Virus record (IMG/VR): IMGVR_UViG_2703718850_000001 | Origin: a virus | Taxonomy: Monodnaviria > Loebvirae > Hofneiviricota > Faserviricetes > Tubulavirales > Inoviridae | Direction: 5' to 3' (one strand) | Length of the DNA: 8,386 nt | Shown: positions 1 to 8,386 of the stretch, in pieces | How the letters are laid out: each line of letters starts with the position of its first letter | Position numbering within the stretch: position 1 is the stretch's first letter | Notes under the pieces: model-generated | The model's database searches: none | The model's input: the letters and a program-made list of their open reading frames with translations, nothing else | Told to the model about the DNA's origin: nothing | Position numbers and translations under genes: made by a program

Positions 1-771
1 ATGTGGAGTGCTATTGCTGGCGCTGCTGGCGCTATTGGTTCTGCTCTTCTTGGTGCTCATTCAGCAAAGGCTTCTGCTGACCGTGCCAATAAGATTACGA
101 TGGATTTGGCCAAAAATGGTATCCAGTATCGTGTGCAGGATTTACGGAAAGCTGGCCTCAATCCCATTCTGGCCGTTACAGGTTCCGGTGGTCTTGGTTC
201 CGTCAGTTCGTCAGGTATTCAGGCTGCCCAGCCTGCTGATTTTTCTGGTGCCGTCAGTTCTGCCGTTGCTGCATTTGATGCCTTAACGAAGCGTCAACAG
301 CAACAGGTTGCTAAGGAAGGTATTGAGTCACAGATTGCTTTGCAGCGTAACCAGATTGCGAATAGTGCGGCTGATGTACGTCTTAAGGATGCACAGGCTG
401 CTGCCGCTCTCCAGAACGTTGAGAACATGAAAACACAGTCTAATCTGACCAATCAGCAGATTTTGACCGAGGCAAGTCGGAGAGCTAATATCGAAGCACA
501 GACAGGCCTTAGCTCTGCACAGCGGATTAGAACTCAATATCAGACTGTTCAGGACAAGGTTCTGGCTGATTATTTGAATACACCTGTTGGAGCTGAAAGT
601 GCACGTGTCAATATGGATGCTTCTTCTGGCGGTCTTATCGGCGGGCTTAATACTTGGCTTAGTTCTTATAAGCGTGACCATGAGGCTAATTCGGCGAAGA
701 AAGTAAACAAGGGGGGACGCTTCCCCCCTTCACAGTTCCAGCAGCAGTTGATTAACAATTATCGGAGGTAA
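1..771 (+). CDS. Microviridae-like DNA pilot / minor spike protein (H/VP2-like)
   Basis: 256-aa ORF starting with ATG at window base 1. Gly/Ala-rich N-terminus MWSAIAGAAGAIGSALLG resembles the remembered phiX174 H N-terminus (MFGAIAGG...), followed by a Gln-rich, coiled-coil-like middle. Immediately followed by a J-like basic peptide gene. Call by recalled resemblance, no search run. Confidence 0.5.
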   Translation: MWSAIAGAAGAIGSALLGAHSAKASADRANKITMDLAKNGIQYRVQDLRKAGLNPILAVTGSGGLGSVSSSGIQAAQPADFSGAVSSAVAAFDALTKRQQQQVAKEGIESQIALQRNQIANSAADVRLKDAQAAAALQNVENMKTQSNLTNQQILTEASRRANIEAQTGLSSAQRIRTQYQTVQDKVLADYLNTPVGAESARVNMDASSGGLIGGLNTWLSSYKRDHEANSAKKVNKGGRFPPSQFQQQLINNYRR

Positions 772-773
772 TT

Positions 774-893
774 ATGGCTCGTTCCCGTAGACGTATGTCT
801 AAGCGTTCTTCCCGCCGTTCGTTCCGCAAGTATGCGAAGTCGCATAAGAAGAACTTTAAAGCCCGCTCAATGCGTGGCGGTATCCGTTTATAA
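774..893 (+). CDS. Small Arg/Lys-rich DNA-binding/packaging peptide (phiX174 J / gokushovirus VP8-like)
   Basis: 39 codons ATG..TAA, MARSRRRMSKRSSRRSFRKYAKSHKKNFKARSMRGGIRL; 18 of 39 residues are R/K. GGAGG at 764-768 lies 5 nt before the ATG. Too short for the ORF track. Position right after a pilot-like gene fits a microvirus structural module. Confidence 0.5.
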   Translation: MARSRRRMSKRSSRRSFRKYAKSHKKNFKARSMRGGIRL

Positions 894-909: not shown

Positions 910-938
910 TTTTGACATAACTTTACATTATGCGCACC
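910..938. other. dif-like XerC/XerD recombination site (candidate IMEX attachment junction)
   Basis: Minus strand reads GGTGCGCATAA-TGTAAAG-TTATGTCAAAA. Against the E. coli dif consensus GGTGCGCATAA-TGTATA-TTATGTTAAAT the XerC arm is 11/11, the XerD arm 9/11 and the central region is 7 bp rather than 6. It sits in the non-coding gap between the microvirus-like genes and the inovirus-side genes. Confidence 0.55.
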
Positions 939-976: not shown

Positions 977-1210
977 TCATTGGTCACAGACCGTAATCCA
1001 CTGGCCCAGGACGTCTTTCAGGCAATGTTGGCATAAATCCAGTTTTAAGCGATTACTGTCACCAAAAATTGAACCGTATCCAGCTAAGTGATTAACAGAC
1101 AGAAACTCATTGAACTCAATGTCATCTACCACCGTCTTCGCATGGCGACCACAGCGATCGCAGGTCTTCGCACATAACATTACAGTATCGCTGGATGTGA
1201 AAAATTGCAT
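977..1210 (-). CDS. Hypothetical 77-aa protein with CxxC...CxxC (putative zinc ribbon)
   Basis: ATG at 1210 with GGAG 6 nt upstream (minus strand), TGA stop at 977-979. Two Cys pairs, CDRC and CQHC, about 40 residues apart. No homologue recognised. Lies between phage gene IV and the dif-like site. Confidence 0.5.
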   Translation of the reverse strand: MQFFTSSDTVMLCAKTCDRCGRHAKTVVDDIEFNEFLSVNHLAGYGSIFGDSNRLKLDLCQHCLKDVLGQWITVCDQ

Positions 1211-1327
1211 TTTATCTCCTCGTAATGCTGCCGCGCCGAATCAGCAATAACGCTAAAAAAACAGAATTGTTCGGCTTGGCCAACCCCTGACACTAACAAA
1301 AGCAAGTTTTGTCACTGTCCGGAGTTA

Positions 1328-1636
1328 TCATATAAACCAATAGACCGTCCTTACGCCATTCTGGTTATCAATAACATAGCCGCATTGTTTCCTTAAAAAT
1401 TCTTCTGCTAAATCAATGGCTTTTACAGAAATCTCATAAGAAGGAAGTAAAGTGTATCCTTTCCCTTCACTGGCAGCTGCTTTGATCGCATCCAGAGTAT
1501 TATCAATCAGTAACAGAGCAAGTGATGCTTCATTTACCTGAGCCGAAGAACTTCTGGCTGCAAGTGTCATTGTTTTTGCTTCTTCCGCTGTAATCGTTCG
1601 TTCTGCCAGAGCAGATAAAATCCCATAAGAATCCAT
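1328..1636 (-). CDS. Hypothetical 102-aa protein (unknown function)
   Basis: ATG at 1636 with a weak GGGG Shine-Dalgarno upstream, TGA stop at 1328-1330. Same strand as the phage genes, directly downstream of gene IV. No homologue recognised. Confidence 0.45.
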   Translation of the reverse strand: MDSYGILSALAERTITAEEAKTMTLAARSSSAQVNEASLALLLIDNTLDAIKAAASEGKGYTLLPSYEISVKAIDLAEEFLRKQCGYVIDNQNGVRTVYWFI

Positions 1637-1657: not shown

Positions 1658-1715
1658 TCCATTTGATGGATAGCGAGCAGGGCTCACGCACCTACCCGCT
1701 ATCCATCAAAGTGGA
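1658..1715 (-). other. Long imperfect hairpin overlapping the gene IV stop codon (possible terminator or packaging-signal-like element)
   Basis: 14-bp perfect stem TTTGATGGATAGCG (1662-1675) pairs with CGCTATCCATCAAA (1697-1710), extended to about 18 bp with one bulge; 21-nt loop. Only a weakly T-rich tail follows on the minus strand. Confidence 0.3.
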
Positions 1716-2971
1716 CGAATGATATGTGCTGTAAGCAAAATATACATAATACGCTGTTCATTGCTGTCTGCCTTGCTACTGAAAATCCAGCCTATAAGAG
1801 GAATTTTACTTATAACTGGAACTGAACGCTCGGCATTGCTGAACGATGAATCGATAAGCCCCCCCAATAACAACGTCTGACCATCCTTAATCTGGACTGT
1901 CGTCTGAATCTGGCGCTGATTAGTAATAATATCGGATGCCTGATCATCATTGCTGATTGAATCAGCGCGAGTGTCGATAGTCAGAACTAGTTGCCCGTTA
2001 CCCATGACAACAGGCGTTACCTTGAGAGAAACGCCAACATCATGACGCTCGATAGTCTGAAACGGATTATTTACCCCGGCAGATTCGCCCGTTACCTTTC
2101 CGGTGATAAACGGCACATTCTTACCTACGGAAATGTAACCAGTCTGACCAGACTGAGTAAGAATACGCGGCGTTGAAATCACCTTAGAGCGTGAATTACT
2201 CTGGACAGCACGCAGAGACAGCGCCAACACGTTACCATCAAAAATACCAAAAGAACCGCCCGCCGTAGAAAGAGCGCTACCCAGTGCAGAAGTATTAAAG
2301 CCCCCCGCAACCTTATGACCGGATGCAGAACCTGCCGCAAACGATAAATCAACGCCATCAGACAAGCTGGTTTCAAACATCAGCGACTGAATGAGAACCT
2401 GATCGCGGGCAACATCCACAGAATTGATAAAATCGGACAGAACCGGCAGCAGCTCGTCAGGCGCAGAAACAATCAGCGAGTTATTGCCTGGATAATCCAC
2501 GACATTACCACCACCATTAGAATCAAGATAAATTTTAATCAGTTGCTGAACATCGGACGATCTAACTTTTGTCAGCTTAAAATTTCTGACCGTAAGCGCC
2601 ACAGGTACTGGCTGGTAAGATGGCTCAGAAGGAAAAGTATCATAAGACTGGTTATCAGAATCATCGGAATCCGAAACCATCTGTGAAGGTAATTTAGACG
2701 GCAAAGAGACTACCGCAGGATTGCCAGAAAGCATGACAAAACCGTTAGCATTCAGAACAGACTTAAAGAAATCATCAATATTTGCTGGATTAACATCAGC
2801 ATTAAATACGGTTACGTTTCCTTTAATATCAGGATTAACAATAACAGGCTTGCCAGTTTTTGAAGAATACCACTGAACAAATGAGCGAACAGATGAATTA
2901 TTTAAATTAACAGTTTCAGCAGAAACGCAGAATGAATAGGCAAATAAAAAAGCAACAATAACAGAGCGCAT
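1706..2971 (-). CDS. IV: Filamentous phage pIV secretin (outer-membrane export channel)
   Basis: 421 aa from ATG 2971-2969 (AGGAG 9 nt upstream), signal-peptide-like MRSVIVAFLFAYSFCVSA. Long runs match remembered M13 pIV (e.g. GKNVPFITGKVTGESAGVNNPFQTIER, QTLLLGGL, SKIPLIGW). The ORF-track extension to 3064 is an upstream alternative-start artefact overlapping gene I. Confidence 0.9.
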   Translation of the reverse strand: MRSVIVAFLFAYSFCVSAETVNLNNSSVRSFVQWYSSKTGKPVIVNPDIKGNVTVFNADVNPANIDDFFKSVLNANGFVMLSGNPAVVSLPSKLPSQMVSDSDDSDNQSYDTFPSEPSYQPVPVALTVRNFKLTKVRSSDVQQLIKIYLDSNGGGNVVDYPGNNSLIVSAPDELLPVLSDFINSVDVARDQVLIQSLMFETSLSDGVDLSFAAGSASGHKVAGGFNTSALGSALSTAGGSFGIFDGNVLALSLRAVQSNSRSKVISTPRILTQSGQTGYISVGKNVPFITGKVTGESAGVNNPFQTIERHDVGVSLKVTPVVMGNGQLVLTIDTRADSISNDDQASDIITNQRQIQTTVQIKDGQTLLLGGLIDSSFSNAERSVPVISKIPLIGWIFSSKADSNEQRIMYILLTAHIIRPL

Positions 2972-2978
2972 AATAATA

Positions 2979-3353
2979 TTACTCCTGACAGGTAACAGTC
3001 TGTAAATAACGGCCTTTTCTAATAACAACACGACAGGCATCTTTAATATCAACGGAATAACCATCTTTAATCAAATCAAAATACTGATATTTCATACCTT
3101 TTGCATCAACAAACGTAACGGAAACGTCAAAGCCAAGTTGTGAAAAAGAATTAATAGAAAGTCGGGGTAAGTCACTGGACGAATCAGGCGTTACCGCCCT
3201 CGCCTGTTCAGCATAAGCAGATTTAATAGCTGAGATTTCATCAACATTCTTTCCAGACTGGAGCCAGAAACCAAACGCAAGCCCCAGCGCCAAAAAAGAA
3301 AGCATTAATATAAGACGGTTCGATTTGCGAAAATAAATTTTAGTGAGGCGCAT
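2979..3353 (-). CDS. XI: Putative pXI (in-frame internal start within gene I)
   Basis: In-frame ATG at 3353-3351 is Met241 of pI, the same position as M13 pXI, with GAGGA upstream; the downstream hydrophobic segment matches the pI membrane anchor. Inferred by analogy with Ff only. Confidence 0.4.
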   Translation of the reverse strand: MRLTKIYFRKSNRLILMLSFLALGLAFGFWLQSGKNVDEISAIKSAYAEQARAVTPDSSSDLPRLSINSFSQLGFDVSVTFVDAKGMKYQYFDLIKDGYSVDIKDACRVVIRKGRYLQTVTCQE

Positions 3354-4073
3354 ATAATAATTAAATCCTCTGTGAACAGAAAATTGACCGTGCGTGATAA
3401 ATGGTGGCAAAAGCGAAAATGCGCCATGAGGATAATTATCTGTGAACGCTTGTTTGGTATTGTAAGCAGAATAAAGAGATTTTCCTGTATATATCCATTT
3501 ATCAACAGTGATTGAATTAACATTATCACCATATTTGACAATGCCAAAGTGTACCTTTGGTAAAGAAAATCTCGCCCCTGAAACCAAATTCATAATGGAG
3601 CCAACAAAAGGAATGTTTAATTTATCTGAACGGCGACAATAAACAACATGCTCAGCAAGCGCCAGACGAGCTTGCTTATCCATTATCGAAATATCCTGAA
3701 TCAAAAATATAATATCCCAGCCTAATTTTCTGGCATGTAAAAACCAGTCAATAACAGATTGTCTGTCTTTATCACCCCATGAGCGGGAATTAAACCAAGT
3801 ACCACATTCATCAAGTACAAGGAGGCCATTACGGGATTCATCGTAAGATGTATTCCCAATACCAATAGCAAGTAAATCATTTAATGAAGGCTTGTCAGGA
3901 ATGCGAATAACGCGCGTTTTTTTCGCATAACGCCCAACCATAGGCATATTATGCAATTTAAGATCAAGATTAGTGGCAACAGGACAACCCTTAGCAAGTC
4001 TTTCCTGTATTCTGGAAACACTAACAAGTGTCTTGCCTGAGCCTAATTTGCCTGTTACTACATAAACCGCCAT
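2979..4073 (-). CDS. I: Filamentous phage pI assembly ATPase (Zot-like)
   Basis: 364 aa; N-terminus MAVYVVTGKLGSGKTLVSV (Walker A) and much of the sequence closely match remembered M13 pI (MAVYFVTGKLGSGKTLVSV...LLVLDECGTWFN...HARKLGWDIIFL...). Start ATG 4073-4071 abuts the gene VI stop (TAAATG). Confidence 0.92.
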   Translation of the reverse strand: MAVYVVTGKLGSGKTLVSVSRIQERLAKGCPVATNLDLKLHNMPMVGRYAKKTRVIRIPDKPSLNDLLAIGIGNTSYDESRNGLLVLDECGTWFNSRSWGDKDRQSVIDWFLHARKLGWDIIFLIQDISIMDKQARLALAEHVVYCRRSDKLNIPFVGSIMNLVSGARFSLPKVHFGIVKYGDNVNSITVDKWIYTGKSLYSAYNTKQAFTDNYPHGAFSLLPPFITHGQFSVHRGFNYYMRLTKIYFRKSNRLILMLSFLALGLAFGFWLQSGKNVDEISAIKSAYAEQARAVTPDSSSDLPRLSINSFSQLGFDVSVTFVDAKGMKYQYFDLIKDGYSVDIKDACRVVIRKGRYLQTVTCQE

Positions 4074-4415: not shown

Positions 4416-4833
4416 CACTCACCTCCTTTGCGAAGCAATGAAGTTAAAGAAGTAAAGACATACCAGAACGTAAGGCAATAAAAAACCCATGAAAGAACAT
4501 CTTTAATAGTCAGTAATTTATCGCAACCAATATCAATCTGATAAACCTCTCCGGGAAAAATAATAAAATCAGAGCAGCCGTTACCATTGGGTAAATTAGG
4601 CAGCATAGCACCTTTATTTAAAAATGCTTCCCATAAAGCACCGTGAGAATCCTTTTCAATTCCCAATTCAGAATCAGCCAAAGTAGAAGCGCCATCTAAT
4701 TCAGAGTCGCCCTTTCCATAACGAGAATCACCACCTGAAGGGTCAGCAAAACGGCCAGCCCCCCGCGTAAGATTGTTAATGGAATCGTCAAGACGATTTA
4801 TATTATTCCTGGTTTGTTCATCGGCATTTTTTT
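4415..4833 (-). CDS. III: Gene III g3p C-terminal domain in the -1 frame (frameshifted continuation; pseudogene or slippage product)
   Basis: This frame is open from the A7 tract (plus 4827-4833) to TGA at 4417-4415. It encodes ...[51 protein letters not shown]..., resembling the M13 g3p C-terminal anchor (...ECRPFVFGAGKPYEFSIDCDKINLFRGVFAFLLYVATFMYVFSTF). It has no start of its own; the track's 4681 start is TTG. Confidence 0.7.
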
Positions 4834-5649
4834 ATCATCTGATGAAGTGTCTTTCTCCGTTAATTTATCATGAATATCGCTGGCTATTTTGGGTGAAGCA
4901 CCTTCGATCGCAGACTGAATATCACCTTTAGAAAGACTGGAACCACTAGAGCCACCGCCAGAACTACCGCCACCGGACTCACCACCGCCAGACTCACCAC
5001 CGCCGGACTCACCACCGCCAGACTCACCACCACCATTTTGGGGGGGTGAGGGTTTATCAGAGGGGTCAGCTACAGCACCTGTAGGCTTCCATGTTGCAGC
5101 GCAAACAGTACCATCACCCTGACAAACAATGACACCAGTAGCCTCATATTCACAGCCGTTATAGTAGATATAGCGACCACCATCATATGAATCAACATTA
5201 TTAAACACACCTTCTTCTGGCGGCTTCGCTTCACAAATTTCTTCTGGTGTCGGGTCAGTAGGTTTTTCATCAGGAACAGAACGCTGAATATTACCAACAA
5301 TATAAGCCGTTAAAGACCAATATTTATCCTTCTGCCCTGGTGAATCGCTGTAAGTACAATCACCAGTAAAAACAAGACGGAATTCAGAATCAGGCCAGAT
5401 ACCCTCATAAGTTGGTTTAACCCGAGTAAATACACTCTGAGCACTGGATTTAGCACCCTGACAAGCGGAGGCCTGCATAGCAGCATCAATATAGTAAACC
5501 GTTGTCTTAGAGCCATCCTGATTGGTTATTTGCTTACTTTCAGCGTAGGCAGAACTTTGATAAGTGGATTTAGTAATGCTTTCCCATGACTCAGCATGTG
5601 AAAAAGGAGAAATGAGGACAGCGGAAAGAATTAATATTTTCCTTTTCAT
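4798..5649 (-). CDS. III: Gene III adsorption protein g3p, N-terminal part (signal peptide, receptor domains, Gly-rich linker); reading frame ends early
   Basis: ATG at 5649-5647 gives [19 protein letters not shown] (signal peptide). A TolA-binding-N1-like segment [29 protein letters not shown] resembles M13 DRYANYEGCLWNATGVVVCTGDETQCYGTW, then a (GGGES)n linker. The frame stops at 4800-4798, 11 codons after an A7 run. The ORF-track extension to 5793 overlaps gene VIII in another frame and is not used. Confidence 0.75.
4951..5034 (-). repeat. Tandem 15-bp coding repeats (about 5 units) encoding the g3p [10 protein letters not shown] linker
   Basis: Plus strand shows repeating units of the form accaccgccagactc / accaccgccggactc; minus strand translation [30 protein letters not shown]. 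Confidence 0.8.
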
Positions 5650-5656
5650 AGTAACC

Positions 5657-5690
5657 CGCTTTAATAAAGGGGCAACGAGTGCCCCTGAGT
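5657..5690 (-). terminator. Rho-independent terminator between gene VIII and gene III
   Basis: On the minus strand, a GC-rich 7-bp stem AGGGGCA/TGCCCCT (5668-5674 pairs with 5680-5686) with a 5-nt loop is followed by TTTATTAAAG, directly after the gene VIII stop. Ff phages have a strong terminator at this position. Confidence 0.6.
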
Positions 5691-5695
5691 GAAAT

Positions 5696-5938
5696 TCAAA
5701 CCGCTTTTGAAGAGAATTTTTTGAAAATACGAATGGCAAGCCCAGCGCCAACCACAGCCACAACAACAGGCCATACTTTACCAATGAGATCATTTGCCTG
5801 AGTCAACAAAGCATCCATTGCCTGACCTGCATAATCAGTACCACCTGTAGCGCCTTCAGCCGCAAAAGAACTTGCAGAAATAAAAAGCGCAGTTGAAGCC
5901 AGAGCAACTTTATATTTAACAGTAGACAGAATTTTCAT
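5696..5938 (-). CDS. VIII: Filamentous phage major coat protein pVIII (IKe-like)
   Basis: 80-aa precursor: signal peptide ending SFA, then mature [54 protein letters not shown]. Acidic N-terminus, hydrophobic core and basic tail [12 protein letters not shown] closely match the remembered IKe coat protein (...[25 protein letters not shown]). ATG at 5938 with GGAG upstream. Confidence 0.92.
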
Positions 5939-6470: not shown

Positions 6471-6785
6471 TTAATGCCAGCTACTGGCGTGCGAAATACG
6501 GTTGTAATCGAAAATAAAACCTTTCTCATAAATCCATAAGGGGATTTCCGCTGGCTTGGCTTCCAGCGTTCTTATTAGCGGAACAACGTTATTAGAGTCT
6601 GGTGAATCACAATAGAAATTAATATCGATACCGAACGAAAGCAATTCTCTTCTATGGCGATAAAAAGTGTTATGAGGTAACATTTCTTTCATGTTAGCCC
6701 CTTGTTTCCAAAGTAAATAAGTTGACTGTATTTTTCTTGGCAGTTTCGTTATTTTTTCATCACTTAAAATAGCATTCTGATTCAT
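6471..6785 (-). CDS. X: Putative pX (in-frame internal start within gene II)
   Basis: In-frame ATG at 6785-6783 with GGGAG 8 nt upstream; product MNQNAILSDEK... (104 aa) aligns with the start of M13 pX (MNIYDDSAVLDA...). Inferred by analogy with Ff. Confidence 0.4.
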   Translation of the reverse strand: MNQNAILSDEKITKLPRKIQSTYLLWKQGANMKEMLPHNTFYRHRRELLSFGIDINFYCDSPDSNNVVPLIRTLEAKPAEIPLWIYEKGFIFDYNRISHASSWH

Positions 6786-7565
6786 TTCTATTCTCCCTAC
6801 ATATTCAGAGAATAATTGACGTGGTGTTTTCATATTCCAGTTAGCGCCAAGCGTTAAATTTAAATCAATAAGCTCAGTTGTTCTTAATGTTAATTCAATA
6901 CGTAATTTATCTTTCGTCCAGTCCAGTAACCCGGCTCGTACAAACTCTTCGGCTATCTGGTGCCCTTTTTTACCAGAAACGTGTTCATCATATTTTGAAT
7001 AAAATTTCAGACTCCATCGACGGGAGTTTTTACCTAAATAAACTGTACCGCCTTTCCCACATGCGCGACCATGGCGTGTTTTAGCTTTAAATTCGGCGGC
7101 ATAAAGCCATGATCTGACATTTTCCAGCGTAGATAATGAATACATGTAATTAATGTCAACACGTGAAATTTTATACTGACCTGCCATAACGGCTTTATAA
7201 GACGCTAAATCATGAGGAATATTCAATAAGGATAAAATCCTGGCATAGACCGTCAACATGAGCCCTTGTATATCATCCGACCCAACAACAGAATGCCCCT
7301 GCAGAAACTTGGAAGGATTACCATCAATGTACAAATGTGTCGCTTTACCTTCGCCATTAGATCCTATCGATCGTACTTTCATCGTTGCTTCATGCGAGCC
7401 GCGAACAGTCAGTCGCTTAACGGTTTCCCACTCAATTGCACCGTCAGCATCAACGCTGACAACACTCCCCGCCGGAAGCGGTTTGTGTGTGCAAGGGAAA
7501 ATCCCGGTAAGCCAATCGATCACGAATAAATCCTCAAAATTGCAAAAATGACGACTTACTAACAC
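6471..7565 (-). CDS. II: Rolling-circle replication initiator pII (gene II); start uncertain
   Basis: Matches remembered M13 pII at NPSKFLQGHSVVG (M13 PAKVLQGHNVFG) and SNNVVPLIR (M13 CNNVVPLVR). The track start at 7565 is GTG; a better-supported start is GTG 7520-7518, preceded by GAGGA, giving about 349 aa. Shorter than M13 pII (410 aa). Confidence 0.85.
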   Translation of the reverse strand: MLVSRHFCNFEDLFVIDWLTGIFPCTHKPLPAGSVVSVDADGAIEWETVKRLTVRGSHEATMKVRSIGSNGEGKATHLYIDGNPSKFLQGHSVVGSDDIQGLMLTVYARILSLLNIPHDLASYKAVMAGQYKISRVDINYMYSLSTLENVRSWLYAAEFKAKTRHGRACGKGGTVYLGKNSRRWSLKFYSKYDEHVSGKKGHQIAEEFVRAGLLDWTKDKLRIELTLRTTELIDLNLTLGANWNMKTPRQLFSEYVGRIEMNQNAILSDEKITKLPRKIQSTYLLWKQGANMKEMLPHNTFYRHRRELLSFGIDINFYCDSPDSNNVVPLIRTLEAKPAEIPLWIYEKGFIFDYNRISHASSWH

Positions 7566-7692: not shown

Positions 7693-7875
7693 ATGGCAAA
7701 GCGCACGACTTATAACGTGACGGAAGAAAGAAAAATGAAACTAGAACGACTGGCTATAAATGCCAGTGTAAAACTAGGAAAAACAATTACATGGACAGAG
7801 ATTTTAGGTTATCTGATTGATAACTACTCTAAAGATGCAGCAGAAGATCTCATGTCTGCCAAACAAAAGGATTAA
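7693..7875 (+). CDS. Ribbon-helix-helix (CopG/Arc-like) transcriptional regulator, candidate phage repressor
   Basis: 60 aa, MAKRTTYNVTEERKMKLERLAINASVKLGKTITWTEILGYLIDNYSKD. The pattern (basic N-terminal strand, then two helices) matches the remembered CopG fold (MKKRLTITLSESVLENLEKMAREMGLSKSAMISVALENYKK). Divergently transcribed from gene II, like rstR relative to rstA in CTXphi. Confidence 0.55.
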   Translation: MAKRTTYNVTEERKMKLERLAINASVKLGKTITWTEILGYLIDNYSKDAAEDLMSAKQKD

Positions 7876-7893
7876 GTACCACGAATGGTACAA

Positions 7894-7930
7894 ACGTGCA
7901 GTATTACCAACACTGCACGTTCTTTATTGT
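7894..7930 (+). terminator. Rho-independent terminator downstream of the RHH gene
   Basis: 9-bp stem ACGTGCAGT (7894-7902) pairs with ACTGCACGT (7912-7920), 9-nt loop, followed by TCTTTATTGTG. Confidence 0.5.
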
Positions 7931-7963
7931 GCGAATTTTGAACAGTGAAAAAGGATCAAAAGG

Positions 7964-8386
7964 ATGAGTAGAAATAACGAAACAAGCGGCGTTGAACTGG
8001 TTGTCGTCGGCGTATTTGCTTTCTGTCTGGCAGTTGTTGCCTGGCTAATGAAAACTTTCGATGTTGAATGGCAAACAGCACTGGAAACTGCGCCTGGCCT
8101 GGTAGTCTGGTTGCTTGCTGTCGGAGCGGGGATCTTTTTCGGGATCAAAATGGAAACAGGTCTTGTTCGCTGGGGTGCTCCACTGGCGATCGCCCTTCTG
8201 ATTCCGGTATTCAAACCAATTCTTAAGGAAGCTGCCGGAGTACGTGAAATGGGTGGGTTGGTTTTCGATGATATGGTTTCGTGGTACGGAACTGGCTGGG
8301 GAATGTCGTTGATGTTTTTCGGAATTCTTATCATTGGATACGGACTTCTTTATTGGTGGCACAGAAGAAACTCATATTACTGGTAA
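7964..8386 (+). CDS. Small integral membrane protein (about 4 predicted TM segments), unknown function
   Basis: 140 aa; ATG at 7964 preceded by AAAGG/AAGGA; hydrophobic stretches VVVGVFAFCLAVVAWLM, LVVWLLAVGAGIFFGI, APLAIALLIPVF, MSLMFFGILIIGYGLLYWW. Stop TAA is the last three bases of the window. Preferred over the overlapping minus-strand ORF 7924-8334, which is Pro/Thr/Ser-rich and low in complexity. Confidence 0.5.
   Translation: MSRNNETSGVELVVVGVFAFCLAVVAWLMKTFDVEWQTALETAPGLVVWLLAVGAGIFFGIKMETGLVRWGAPLAIALLIPVFKPILKEAAGVREMGGLVFDDMVSWYGTGWGMSLMFFGILIIGYGLLYWWHRRNSYYW

Follow-up and report, generated by a model that had tools for sequence, protein, structure and literature searches.

ORF102 and ORF77 are two small open reading frames (ORFs) in an 8,386-nt stretch of inovirus DNA (IMG/VR virus record IMGVR_UViG_2703718850_000001; the entire stretch will be referred to as the window). 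They occupy positions 1328..1636 (102 aa) and 977..1210 (77 aa) on the minus strand, each with an ATG start, and are located on the same strand as gene IV, between gene IV and a dif-like site. We read them as the dif-proximal (attR) accessory genes of a prophage of the CUS-1/YpfPhi type, which integrates at dif through the Xer system, and we propose that their products act inside the lysogen. The probability of this reading, for the identity and the proposed mechanism jointly, is put at roughly 0.45. The two genes are unrelated evolutionary units and do not form a pair. ORF102 is an orphan confined to its phage lineage. ORF77 belongs to a family that is large, mobile and not covered by a Pfam, NCBIfam or PADLOC model, and together with an upstream hairpin it makes up a portable cassette of about 370 bp.

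Two unrelated genes at the dif end of a common prophage

The slot that holds the two genes is bounded on one side by gene IV, the last of the core genes, which encodes the secretin (minus strand; 1706-3064 as the longest ORF, Pfam Secretin with an E value of 6.6e-43; 1706..2971 and 421 aa with the RefSeq start). On the other side is the dif-like XerC/XerD site, GGTGCGCATAATGTAAAGTTATGTCAAAA (910..938, minus strand), in which a 7-nt spacer separates a perfect XerC arm from a degenerate XerD arm. ORF77, with its CxxC...CxxC motif, is the last gene before this site, which begins 39 nt beyond the ORF77 stop codon. A sequence-only reading of the window had placed two small same-strand ORFs between gene IV and an att-like site, and the coordinates, the Cys motif, the secretin and the dif-like site were all recovered in the present analysis. 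That reading had also likened the location to that of ctxAB in CTXphi, and the anatomy of a cargo slot is indeed present, with the genes positioned between gene IV and the Xer/dif site.

Prophages with 99% identity to the inovirus portion of the window (908/911-8386) are present in about 47 complete E. coli genomes. One of these is the genome of UM146, where the prophage is located at dif and is flanked by a fimbrial operon and hipBA. These roughly 47 E. coli dif prophages are presumably CUS-1, an assignment that draws on the literature. The survey of related prophages suggested by the sequence-only reading gives a clear picture of conservation, both in these genomes and in a public assembly collection, where a protein identical to ORF102 is indexed in 12,119 blocks. 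The gene order in these blocks is nearly always gIV, ORF102, ORF77.

The terminal genes of this prophage have been described before. In the review by Derbise and Carniel (2014; PMC4266046), YpfPhi of Y. pestis is 8.7 kb in length, CUS-1 of E. coli K1 is 99% identical to it, and two ORFs beside attR (YPO2280a and YPO2281, with homologues in CUS-1) are listed without a predictable function. The review points out that CTXphi has ctxAB at the corresponding position, and it names the function of the terminal ORFs as a goal. The arrangement in the window is the same, with two small same-strand ORFs right after the secretin gene and adjoining attR/dif, although beyond the att site the window has a gokushovirus prophage instead of host DNA. 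ORF102 and ORF77 are taken to be the homologues of YPO2280a and YPO2281, by position, gene order and the literature and not by sequence alignment. They are therefore not a fresh observation; the review already contains them, together with the same comparison to ctxAB. The possibility that they would turn out to be annotated, conserved inovirus proteins is borne out in part, in that they are conserved hypothetical proteins of a common prophage, with annotation as function-unknown only.

Other accounts of these genes are few. Neither ORF is named by locus in the main text of a 2023 YpfPhi paper, a section of which covers Zot and the secretin, and YPO2281 is otherwise named only in a typing study based on clustered regularly interspaced short palindromic repeats (CRISPR). 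Two ORFs of unknown function are also found beside dif in the UPphi phages, which are Lineavirus-like and dif-integrating, in a region that corresponds to intergenic sequence in IKe, I2-2 and M13 (PMC7307601). The UPphi phages are a separate group, with less than 30% overall amino-acid identity between YpfPhi and UPphi901 (PMC7307601). ORF102 and ORF77 are thus already known as very common prophage genes of unknown function. What goes beyond the cited literature is that the two are unrelated units, that ORF77 belongs to a large, mobile family of predicted zinc fingers, found again at the dif end of several inovirus lineages, and that in enterobacterial elements it is accompanied by a hairpin with covariation.

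Both ORFs have the properties of genes. ORF77 matches phrog_5435 (E value of 4.5e-46) and ORF102 matches phrog_4115 (E value of 2e-68), in both cases over the full length of the protein (residues 1-77 and 1-102, respectively), and both families are annotated 'unknown function'. RefSeq coding sequences exist for the two ORFs in E. coli UM146 (WP_001159442.1 and WP_000378924.1). Both genes are under purifying selection, with a ratio of nonsynonymous to synonymous substitution rates (dN/dS) of 0.14 for ORF102, against the diverged homologue in the Salmonella phage locus L007, and of 0.06-0.11 for ORF77, against the loci L002 and L106. ORF77 has a strong Shine-Dalgarno sequence, GAGGAG (1216-1221), 5 nt ahead of its ATG, and that of ORF102 is weaker (GGGG, about 8 nt upstream). 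No above-threshold match was found for either protein in Pfam (to an E value of 0.1), NCBIfam or PADLOC; in PADLOC, ORF77 has only a chance-level match to Cas8b (E value of 0.023) and ORF102 has none. Sequence-profile searches of the Protein Data Bank (PDB) were negative for both.

Both proteins are acidic, with isoelectric points of 5.4 for ORF77 and 4.7 for ORF102. Neither has a signal peptide, a hydrophobic N-terminus or a hydrophobic segment, the maximum Kyte-Doolittle values over 15 residues being 0.86 and 1.43. The acidic composition and the lack of a hydrophobic segment point to a cytoplasmic location for both.

The two genes have different histories. No relatives of ORF102 outside its own phage group were found among 5.8 billion and 1.84 billion proteins, and a BFVD search with ORF102 returned only uncharacterised proteins, with E values of at least 6e-3. 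ORF102 is also located directly behind gene IV in Salmonella phages (L007-L009), where unrelated DNA replaces ORF77. It diverges much faster than the core genes. Between the window phage and the Salmonella phage L007, the identity is 60% for ORF102, compared with 80-93% for gII, gV, gVIII, gVI, gI and gIV. The divergence is greatest in the N-terminal third of ORF102, where the identity is 32%. The predicted C-terminus appears weakly similar to a winged helix.

The ORF77 family and its hairpin cassette

A search with the single ORF77 sequence finds 14 relatives, and a profile built from six of these finds 1,656. The four Cys residues of ORF77 are arranged as C17-D-R-C20 and C60-Q-H-C63, and all four are 99-100% conserved across the family. 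The positions conserved at 96-100% are C17, D18, C20, E32, E35, G44, S47, F49, G50, D51, D58, C60, Q61, C63 and W71, and those conserved at about 88-97% are R19, G52, L59, H62, K65 and L68. The AlphaFold (AF2) model of ORF77, from an input of 112 sequences, has a predicted local distance difference test (pLDDT) score of 87.5. In this model, the first CxxC is located in a turn joining two short strands, and the second is at the N-terminus of the C-terminal helix. This confident model is consistent with a treble-clef-like Cys4 zinc finger as the predicted fold of ORF77.

The sub-threshold Pfam matches of the family are to assorted zinc-ribbon families, and ORF77 has weak matches to eS26, eS21 and the PARP, RING and ClpX zinc domains. 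PDB profile searches and structure comparison gave no solved-structure relative of the family. The domain has a mean net charge of -2.5 across the family and few conserved basic residues. A degenerate HNH or His-Me finger nuclease was also considered for ORF77 and was rejected, as no HNH profile matches and the family does not conserve the catalytic His.

Members of the family are present in several kinds of mobile elements. ORF77 homologues are last or next-to-last before a perfect dif in two further inovirus lineages, which brings the total to three. These are the Klebsiella-type inoviruses (L014-L017, L036, L037 and L111) and the Providencia-type inoviruses (L022 and L023), the latter with a DUF2158 gene after the ORF77 homologue. 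Both types use a different replication protein (Rep_trans-type). A homologue with 71% identity is found on L002, a plasmid-like contig with StbA, ParB and umuDC-like genes, and another is on small Rep3 plasmids of Proteus and Providencia (L010). Relatives are also carried on the chromosomes of Burkholderiales and other Proteobacteria and by many viral contigs, some of them adjoining tailed-phage genes (terminase, portal). With more than 1,600 clusters in the family, any function of ORF77 would apply to many phages and plasmids.

The sample of this family was formed by the 155 loci with an ORF77-family match among 160 fetched. In only 15 of the 155 was there a match to Zot, the secretin or gII, as judged with seven queries from three enterobacterial inoviruses. 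A general link between the ORF77 family and dif was considered and set aside, as a search with an E. coli-type pattern gave sites only in enterobacterial inovirus loci.

The commonest downstream partner of ORF77-family genes is an SNase-type protein (9 loci), which begins with a hydrophobic leader and contains another hydrophobic segment further along. In Roseateles, Pelomonas, Paucibacter and relatives (L109-L125), the ORF77-domain proteins are long, with a recurring 'HGGEFP' motif in their tails, and the SNase-type gene follows after a 6-nt gap or a short overlap, giving a conserved two-gene unit.

The boundaries of the ORF77 cassette are set by the edges of the alignment with plasmid L002 and Salmonella phage L007. 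In the three-way alignment, the stop codon of ORF102 is the exact start of the homology to the L002 plasmid, and this homology extends to about 20 nt beyond the stop codon of ORF77. L007 retains the first ~100 nt and, ahead of dif, the last ~35 nt, with unrelated DNA in place of ORF77. ORF77 thus behaves as an exchangeable cassette, with the gene absent from the Salmonella phage and a homologue present on the plasmid.

At the 5' edge of the cassette, 2 nt past the ORF102 stop codon, is hairpin 1 (1282..1326, minus strand), with a 20-bp stem and a 5-nt loop. It is followed by the ORF77 leader (1211..1281, minus strand), which includes the GAGGAG sequence. The leader is conserved, and it is co-inherited with the gene in plasmid L002. 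The genes upstream of ORF77 in L002 are on the opposite strand, and the expression of this copy must therefore, to judge from the gene layout, be driven by the conserved leader. A scan of the region 850-1800 found neither a consensus sigma-70 promoter nor an intrinsic terminator, and no Rfam family was found in the window.

Covariation analysis was carried out with 13 distinct versions of hairpin 1, from two inovirus lineages and two plasmid types. Among these 13 sequences, 92% of the cells are paired, and compensatory double changes are seen at 9 of the 20 base pairs. These values were not attained in any of 500 shuffles, and slid controls pair at 35-50%. The fold of the 136-nt region that holds the hairpin has a z score of -3.25. 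A G.T wobble pair is retained in 12 of the 13 sequences, which makes the hairpin specific to the coding strand. This strand is the sense strand of the mRNA and is also the packaged (+) strand. Hairpin 1 persists in the Salmonella phages that do not have ORF77.

A second hairpin (hairpin 2; 1662..1710, minus strand), with a 20-bp stem of 90% complementarity, spans the gene IV stop codon and is located ahead of ORF102. It is kept in L007, with one compensatory change from A-T to C-G. There is no T-run after either hairpin. Candidate roles for the hairpins are in RNA processing or stability, as a packaging signal, as a minus-strand origin, or as a point of recombination.

Two other interpretations of hairpin 1 were rejected. 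For a near-consensus antisense promoter within the hairpin (TTGTCA-16-TATAAA), inspection by eye showed no conservation in L002 or L007. A single-stranded-DNA promoter of the Frpo type, as in leading regions, would require the other strand, as the wobble pairs are on the sense strand.

In the Klebsiella-type inovirus L037, hairpin 1 is duplicated (3357-3401 and 3911-3962), and the loops of the two copies are mutually inverted. The copies flank a reverse-strand gene for a protein of 136 aa, with a hydrophobic segment and Cys pairs. Because these copies flank an inserted gene, hairpin 1 may be a point of cassette exchange.

Possible functions of the two proteins

The sequence-only reading had put forward lysogenic conversion, defence or anti-defence as candidate roles of the two genes, and candidates they stay. 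We propose that the two proteins work within the lysogen and do so by binding a partner, which would be a protein or possibly a structured nucleic acid, and that neither acts as a secreted toxin. ORF77 would be an orphan antitoxin-type zinc-finger module, neutralising or regulating a toxin, defence or addiction function, either of the host or of a rival mobile element. The turnover of cassettes at the dif end would probably occur by recombination between elements stacked at dif. Taken separately, the antitoxin-type mechanism for ORF77 inside the lysogen is a tentative suggestion, and a doubtful one.

This suggestion comes from the fusions in the family. C-terminal extensions are present in about one third of the ORF77-family members, most of them without a Pfam match. 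Among 112 aligned members, the ORF77 domain is N-terminal to Xre_MbcA_ParS_C (PF09722) in three, with an E value of 4e-8, and to a CcdA-like tail (PF07362) in five, with a best E value of 0.007. Tails matching DUF29, HTH_17 and DUF4926 are found in one member each. In the fusions, the predicted zinc finger takes the usual place of the N-terminal DNA-binding or dimerisation domain of an antitoxin. The ORF77 domain is an N-terminal module in proteins that resemble type II antitoxins (CcdA; Xre/MbcA/ParS). On the other hand, ORF77 itself ends after the zinc finger and has no toxin-binding tail, and its domain is an acidic zinc finger (predicted) instead of a ribbon-helix-helix or helix-turn-helix domain.

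Several observations weigh against the proposed reading. The antitoxin fusions are a small minority of the ORF77 family. The gene that follows the proteins with CcdA-like tails encodes a DUF2971 protein, not CcdB, and there is no toxin gene beside ORF77 in the window, where only dif follows. Across 111 homologue loci, the gene downstream of ORF77-family members varies, and the neighbours are heterogeneous. The SNase-type partner looks exported or membrane-anchored from its sequence and is not toxin-like; for this reason, a toxin-antitoxin pair with the SNase-type neighbour was dropped. No partner or target turned up for either protein, and neither has a match in PADLOC. The acidic domain also fits poorly with the DNA-binding role that is usual for the N-terminal domains of antitoxins.

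A less likely alternative is that the two proteins regulate the phage itself by binding nucleic acid, with ORF77 a dimeric zinc-finger repressor acting on the upstream hairpin and ORF102 a winged-helix protein. They would then modulate lysogeny or the expression of phage genes, with RstC, the antirepressor of RS1, as one possible parallel. Such a role would fit the co-inheritance of hairpin 1 and ORF77 in the two inovirus lineages and two plasmid types, the position of the ORF77 domain at the place of the DNA-binding domain of type II antitoxins, and the retention of this region by mini-prophage derivatives (see below). However, both proteins are acidic, as is the family on average, and hairpin 1 is maintained where ORF77 is missing. 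The conserved G.T wobble indicates a structure of RNA or single-stranded DNA, not a double-stranded operator. Upstream hairpins were also compared with control regions over the family as a whole, and their enrichment did not reach significance (p = 0.06). The acidic composition and the strand-specific wobble disfavour a classical pair of operator and repressor.

RstC, the antirepressor of the RS1 satellite, and XafT of TLCphi are small proteins encoded beside the att site of Xer-dependent filamentous elements. By analogy with XafT, ORF102 and ORF77 could serve DNA transactions of the phage, either in XerCD integration or excision or in the synthesis of the complementary strand or in packaging, with the hairpins as cis sites. 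We consider this improbable. The location of ORF77-family genes next to dif in three inovirus lineages is in its favor, and so are the position of the region at the place of the Ff intergenic region, the strand specificity of the hairpins on the packaged strand, and the retention of this segment by deletion derivatives. Against it, about 90% of the sampled loci have neither a match to the seven inovirus queries nor an E. coli-type dif nearby. The gene is also carried by theta-type Rep3 plasmids and by viral contigs with tailed-phage genes, and the Salmonella relative does without ORF77. No match to Pfam DUF3653, which we take to be the XafT domain, was found for ORF77 or ORF102 with E values up to 0.1. 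A dedicated role in Xer recombination or packaging is disfavoured because the ORF77 family is broadly present outside inoviruses.

CtxA and CtxB are exported proteins. That ORF102 and ORF77 are exported virulence factors, producing lysogenic conversion in the strict CTXphi sense, is highly improbable, even though they share the cargo position of ctxAB, with the assembly and secretion genes on one side and the Xer attachment site on the other, and even though YpfPhi and CUS-1 give a modest fitness gain in animal models (PMC4266046). The two proteins have no sequence or fold similarity to AB5 toxins. A secreted toxin similar to CtxAB is unlikely because both are acidic and have no signal peptide or membrane segment. 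Moreover, the ORF77 family is spread among environmental Betaproteobacteria, phages and plasmids, and the attenuated mutant of CUS-1 maps to puvA, which encodes a virion protein, not to the terminal ORFs (PMC4266046).

The chance that either ORF, or both, is a functionless remnant or an artefact of annotation, as the lack of known domain matches and of a consensus promoter might suggest, is negligible in view of the dN/dS values of 0.06-0.14, the intact ORFs in thousands of assemblies, the confident model of ORF77 and its strong ribosome-binding site.

The third-pandemic lineage of Y. pestis gains fitness from YpfPhi, as invasive E. coli K1 does from CUS-1, and in the search for the mechanism the review points to the terminal ORFs (PMC4266046). 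The present analysis narrows this question but does not solve it: the two genes are unrelated units, their products are probably cytoplasmic, and toxins are unlikely. A broader proposal is that the predicted ORF77 zinc finger and its strand-specific hairpin represent an undescribed family of mobile cassettes, whose stand-alone copies, in plasmids and in inoviruses that integrate at dif, would counteract a toxin or a defence module or else target the Xer/dif machinery or single-stranded DNA entering the cell. ORF77, perhaps with ORF102, would then explain the fitness benefit of YpfPhi and CUS-1. This extended proposal is speculative, and we regard it as unlikely to hold in full.

Stacked prophages at dif and other features of the window

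The inovirus prophage meets an adjacent gokushovirus prophage at the dif-like site (910-938). Positions 1..893 (plus strand) are the 3' end of an enterogokushovirus (Microviridae) prophage and not part of the inovirus, with the VP2 pilot protein at 1-771 and an Arg-rich protein of 39 aa at 774-893. This end has 85% identity to Microvirus mar4 and 81% to phage EC6098. A perfect dif is found at the same place, after ORF77, in UM146, L026-L030 and L106. E. coli C5 has a gokushovirus prophage (99.5% identity) that is alone at dif, and its right end carries a site identical to the dif-like site of the window. The site at 910-938 is the gokushovirus's own variable 'phage dif-motif'.

Two unrelated single-stranded DNA phages, one icosahedral and the other filamentous, are thus arranged head to tail at dif. 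The main text of the 2020 eLife paper on gokushoviruses has no mention of inoviruses or filamentous phages. The cassette of hairpin and gene, together with the single-stranded DNA phages stacked at dif, suggests how Xer-dependent elements swap their cargo.

Other arrangements at dif were also observed. In L187 and L188, two prophage copies are present on one scaffold, 8 kb apart. The L187 copy ends in a different hybrid dif (GGTGCGCATAATGTACGACTCGTTATGTTGAAAA) beside a Fic-domain gene, which suggests a further element stacked at dif. There are also recurrent deletion derivatives, in which the N-terminus of gII is fused to the C-terminal part of ORF102 or ORF77, with several junctions (fusion-derivative proteins P0014, P0019 and P0151-P0164). 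In L196 (Citrobacter youngae), regulatory and accessory genes, a gII'::ORF102' fusion and ORF77 are retained, and there are no structural genes. This element resembles a mini-prophage or a satellite of the RS1 type.

The inovirus core is complete on the minus strand of the window, as seen from the ORF list and Pfam. Gene gII is located at 6471-7565 (Phage_CRI, E value of 9e-70) and gI/Zot at 2979-4073, with gV, gVIII, gIII and gVI between them, all on the minus strand. Gene III (4798-5793) encodes a repeat linker that is rich in Gly and Ser.

At the opposite end of the prophage (7693-8386 of the window, and 10840-12316 of L001), small genes are transcribed divergently and form a second accessory and regulatory block. 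The proteins of this block include one of 60 aa (phrog_2503) and one of 140 aa (phrog_4174), and beyond the window an 'ECs_2282 family putative zinc-binding protein' and a protein of 159 aa. In several E. coli genomes, the matches to the whole window fall in two pieces, which may reflect length variation somewhere in the phage.

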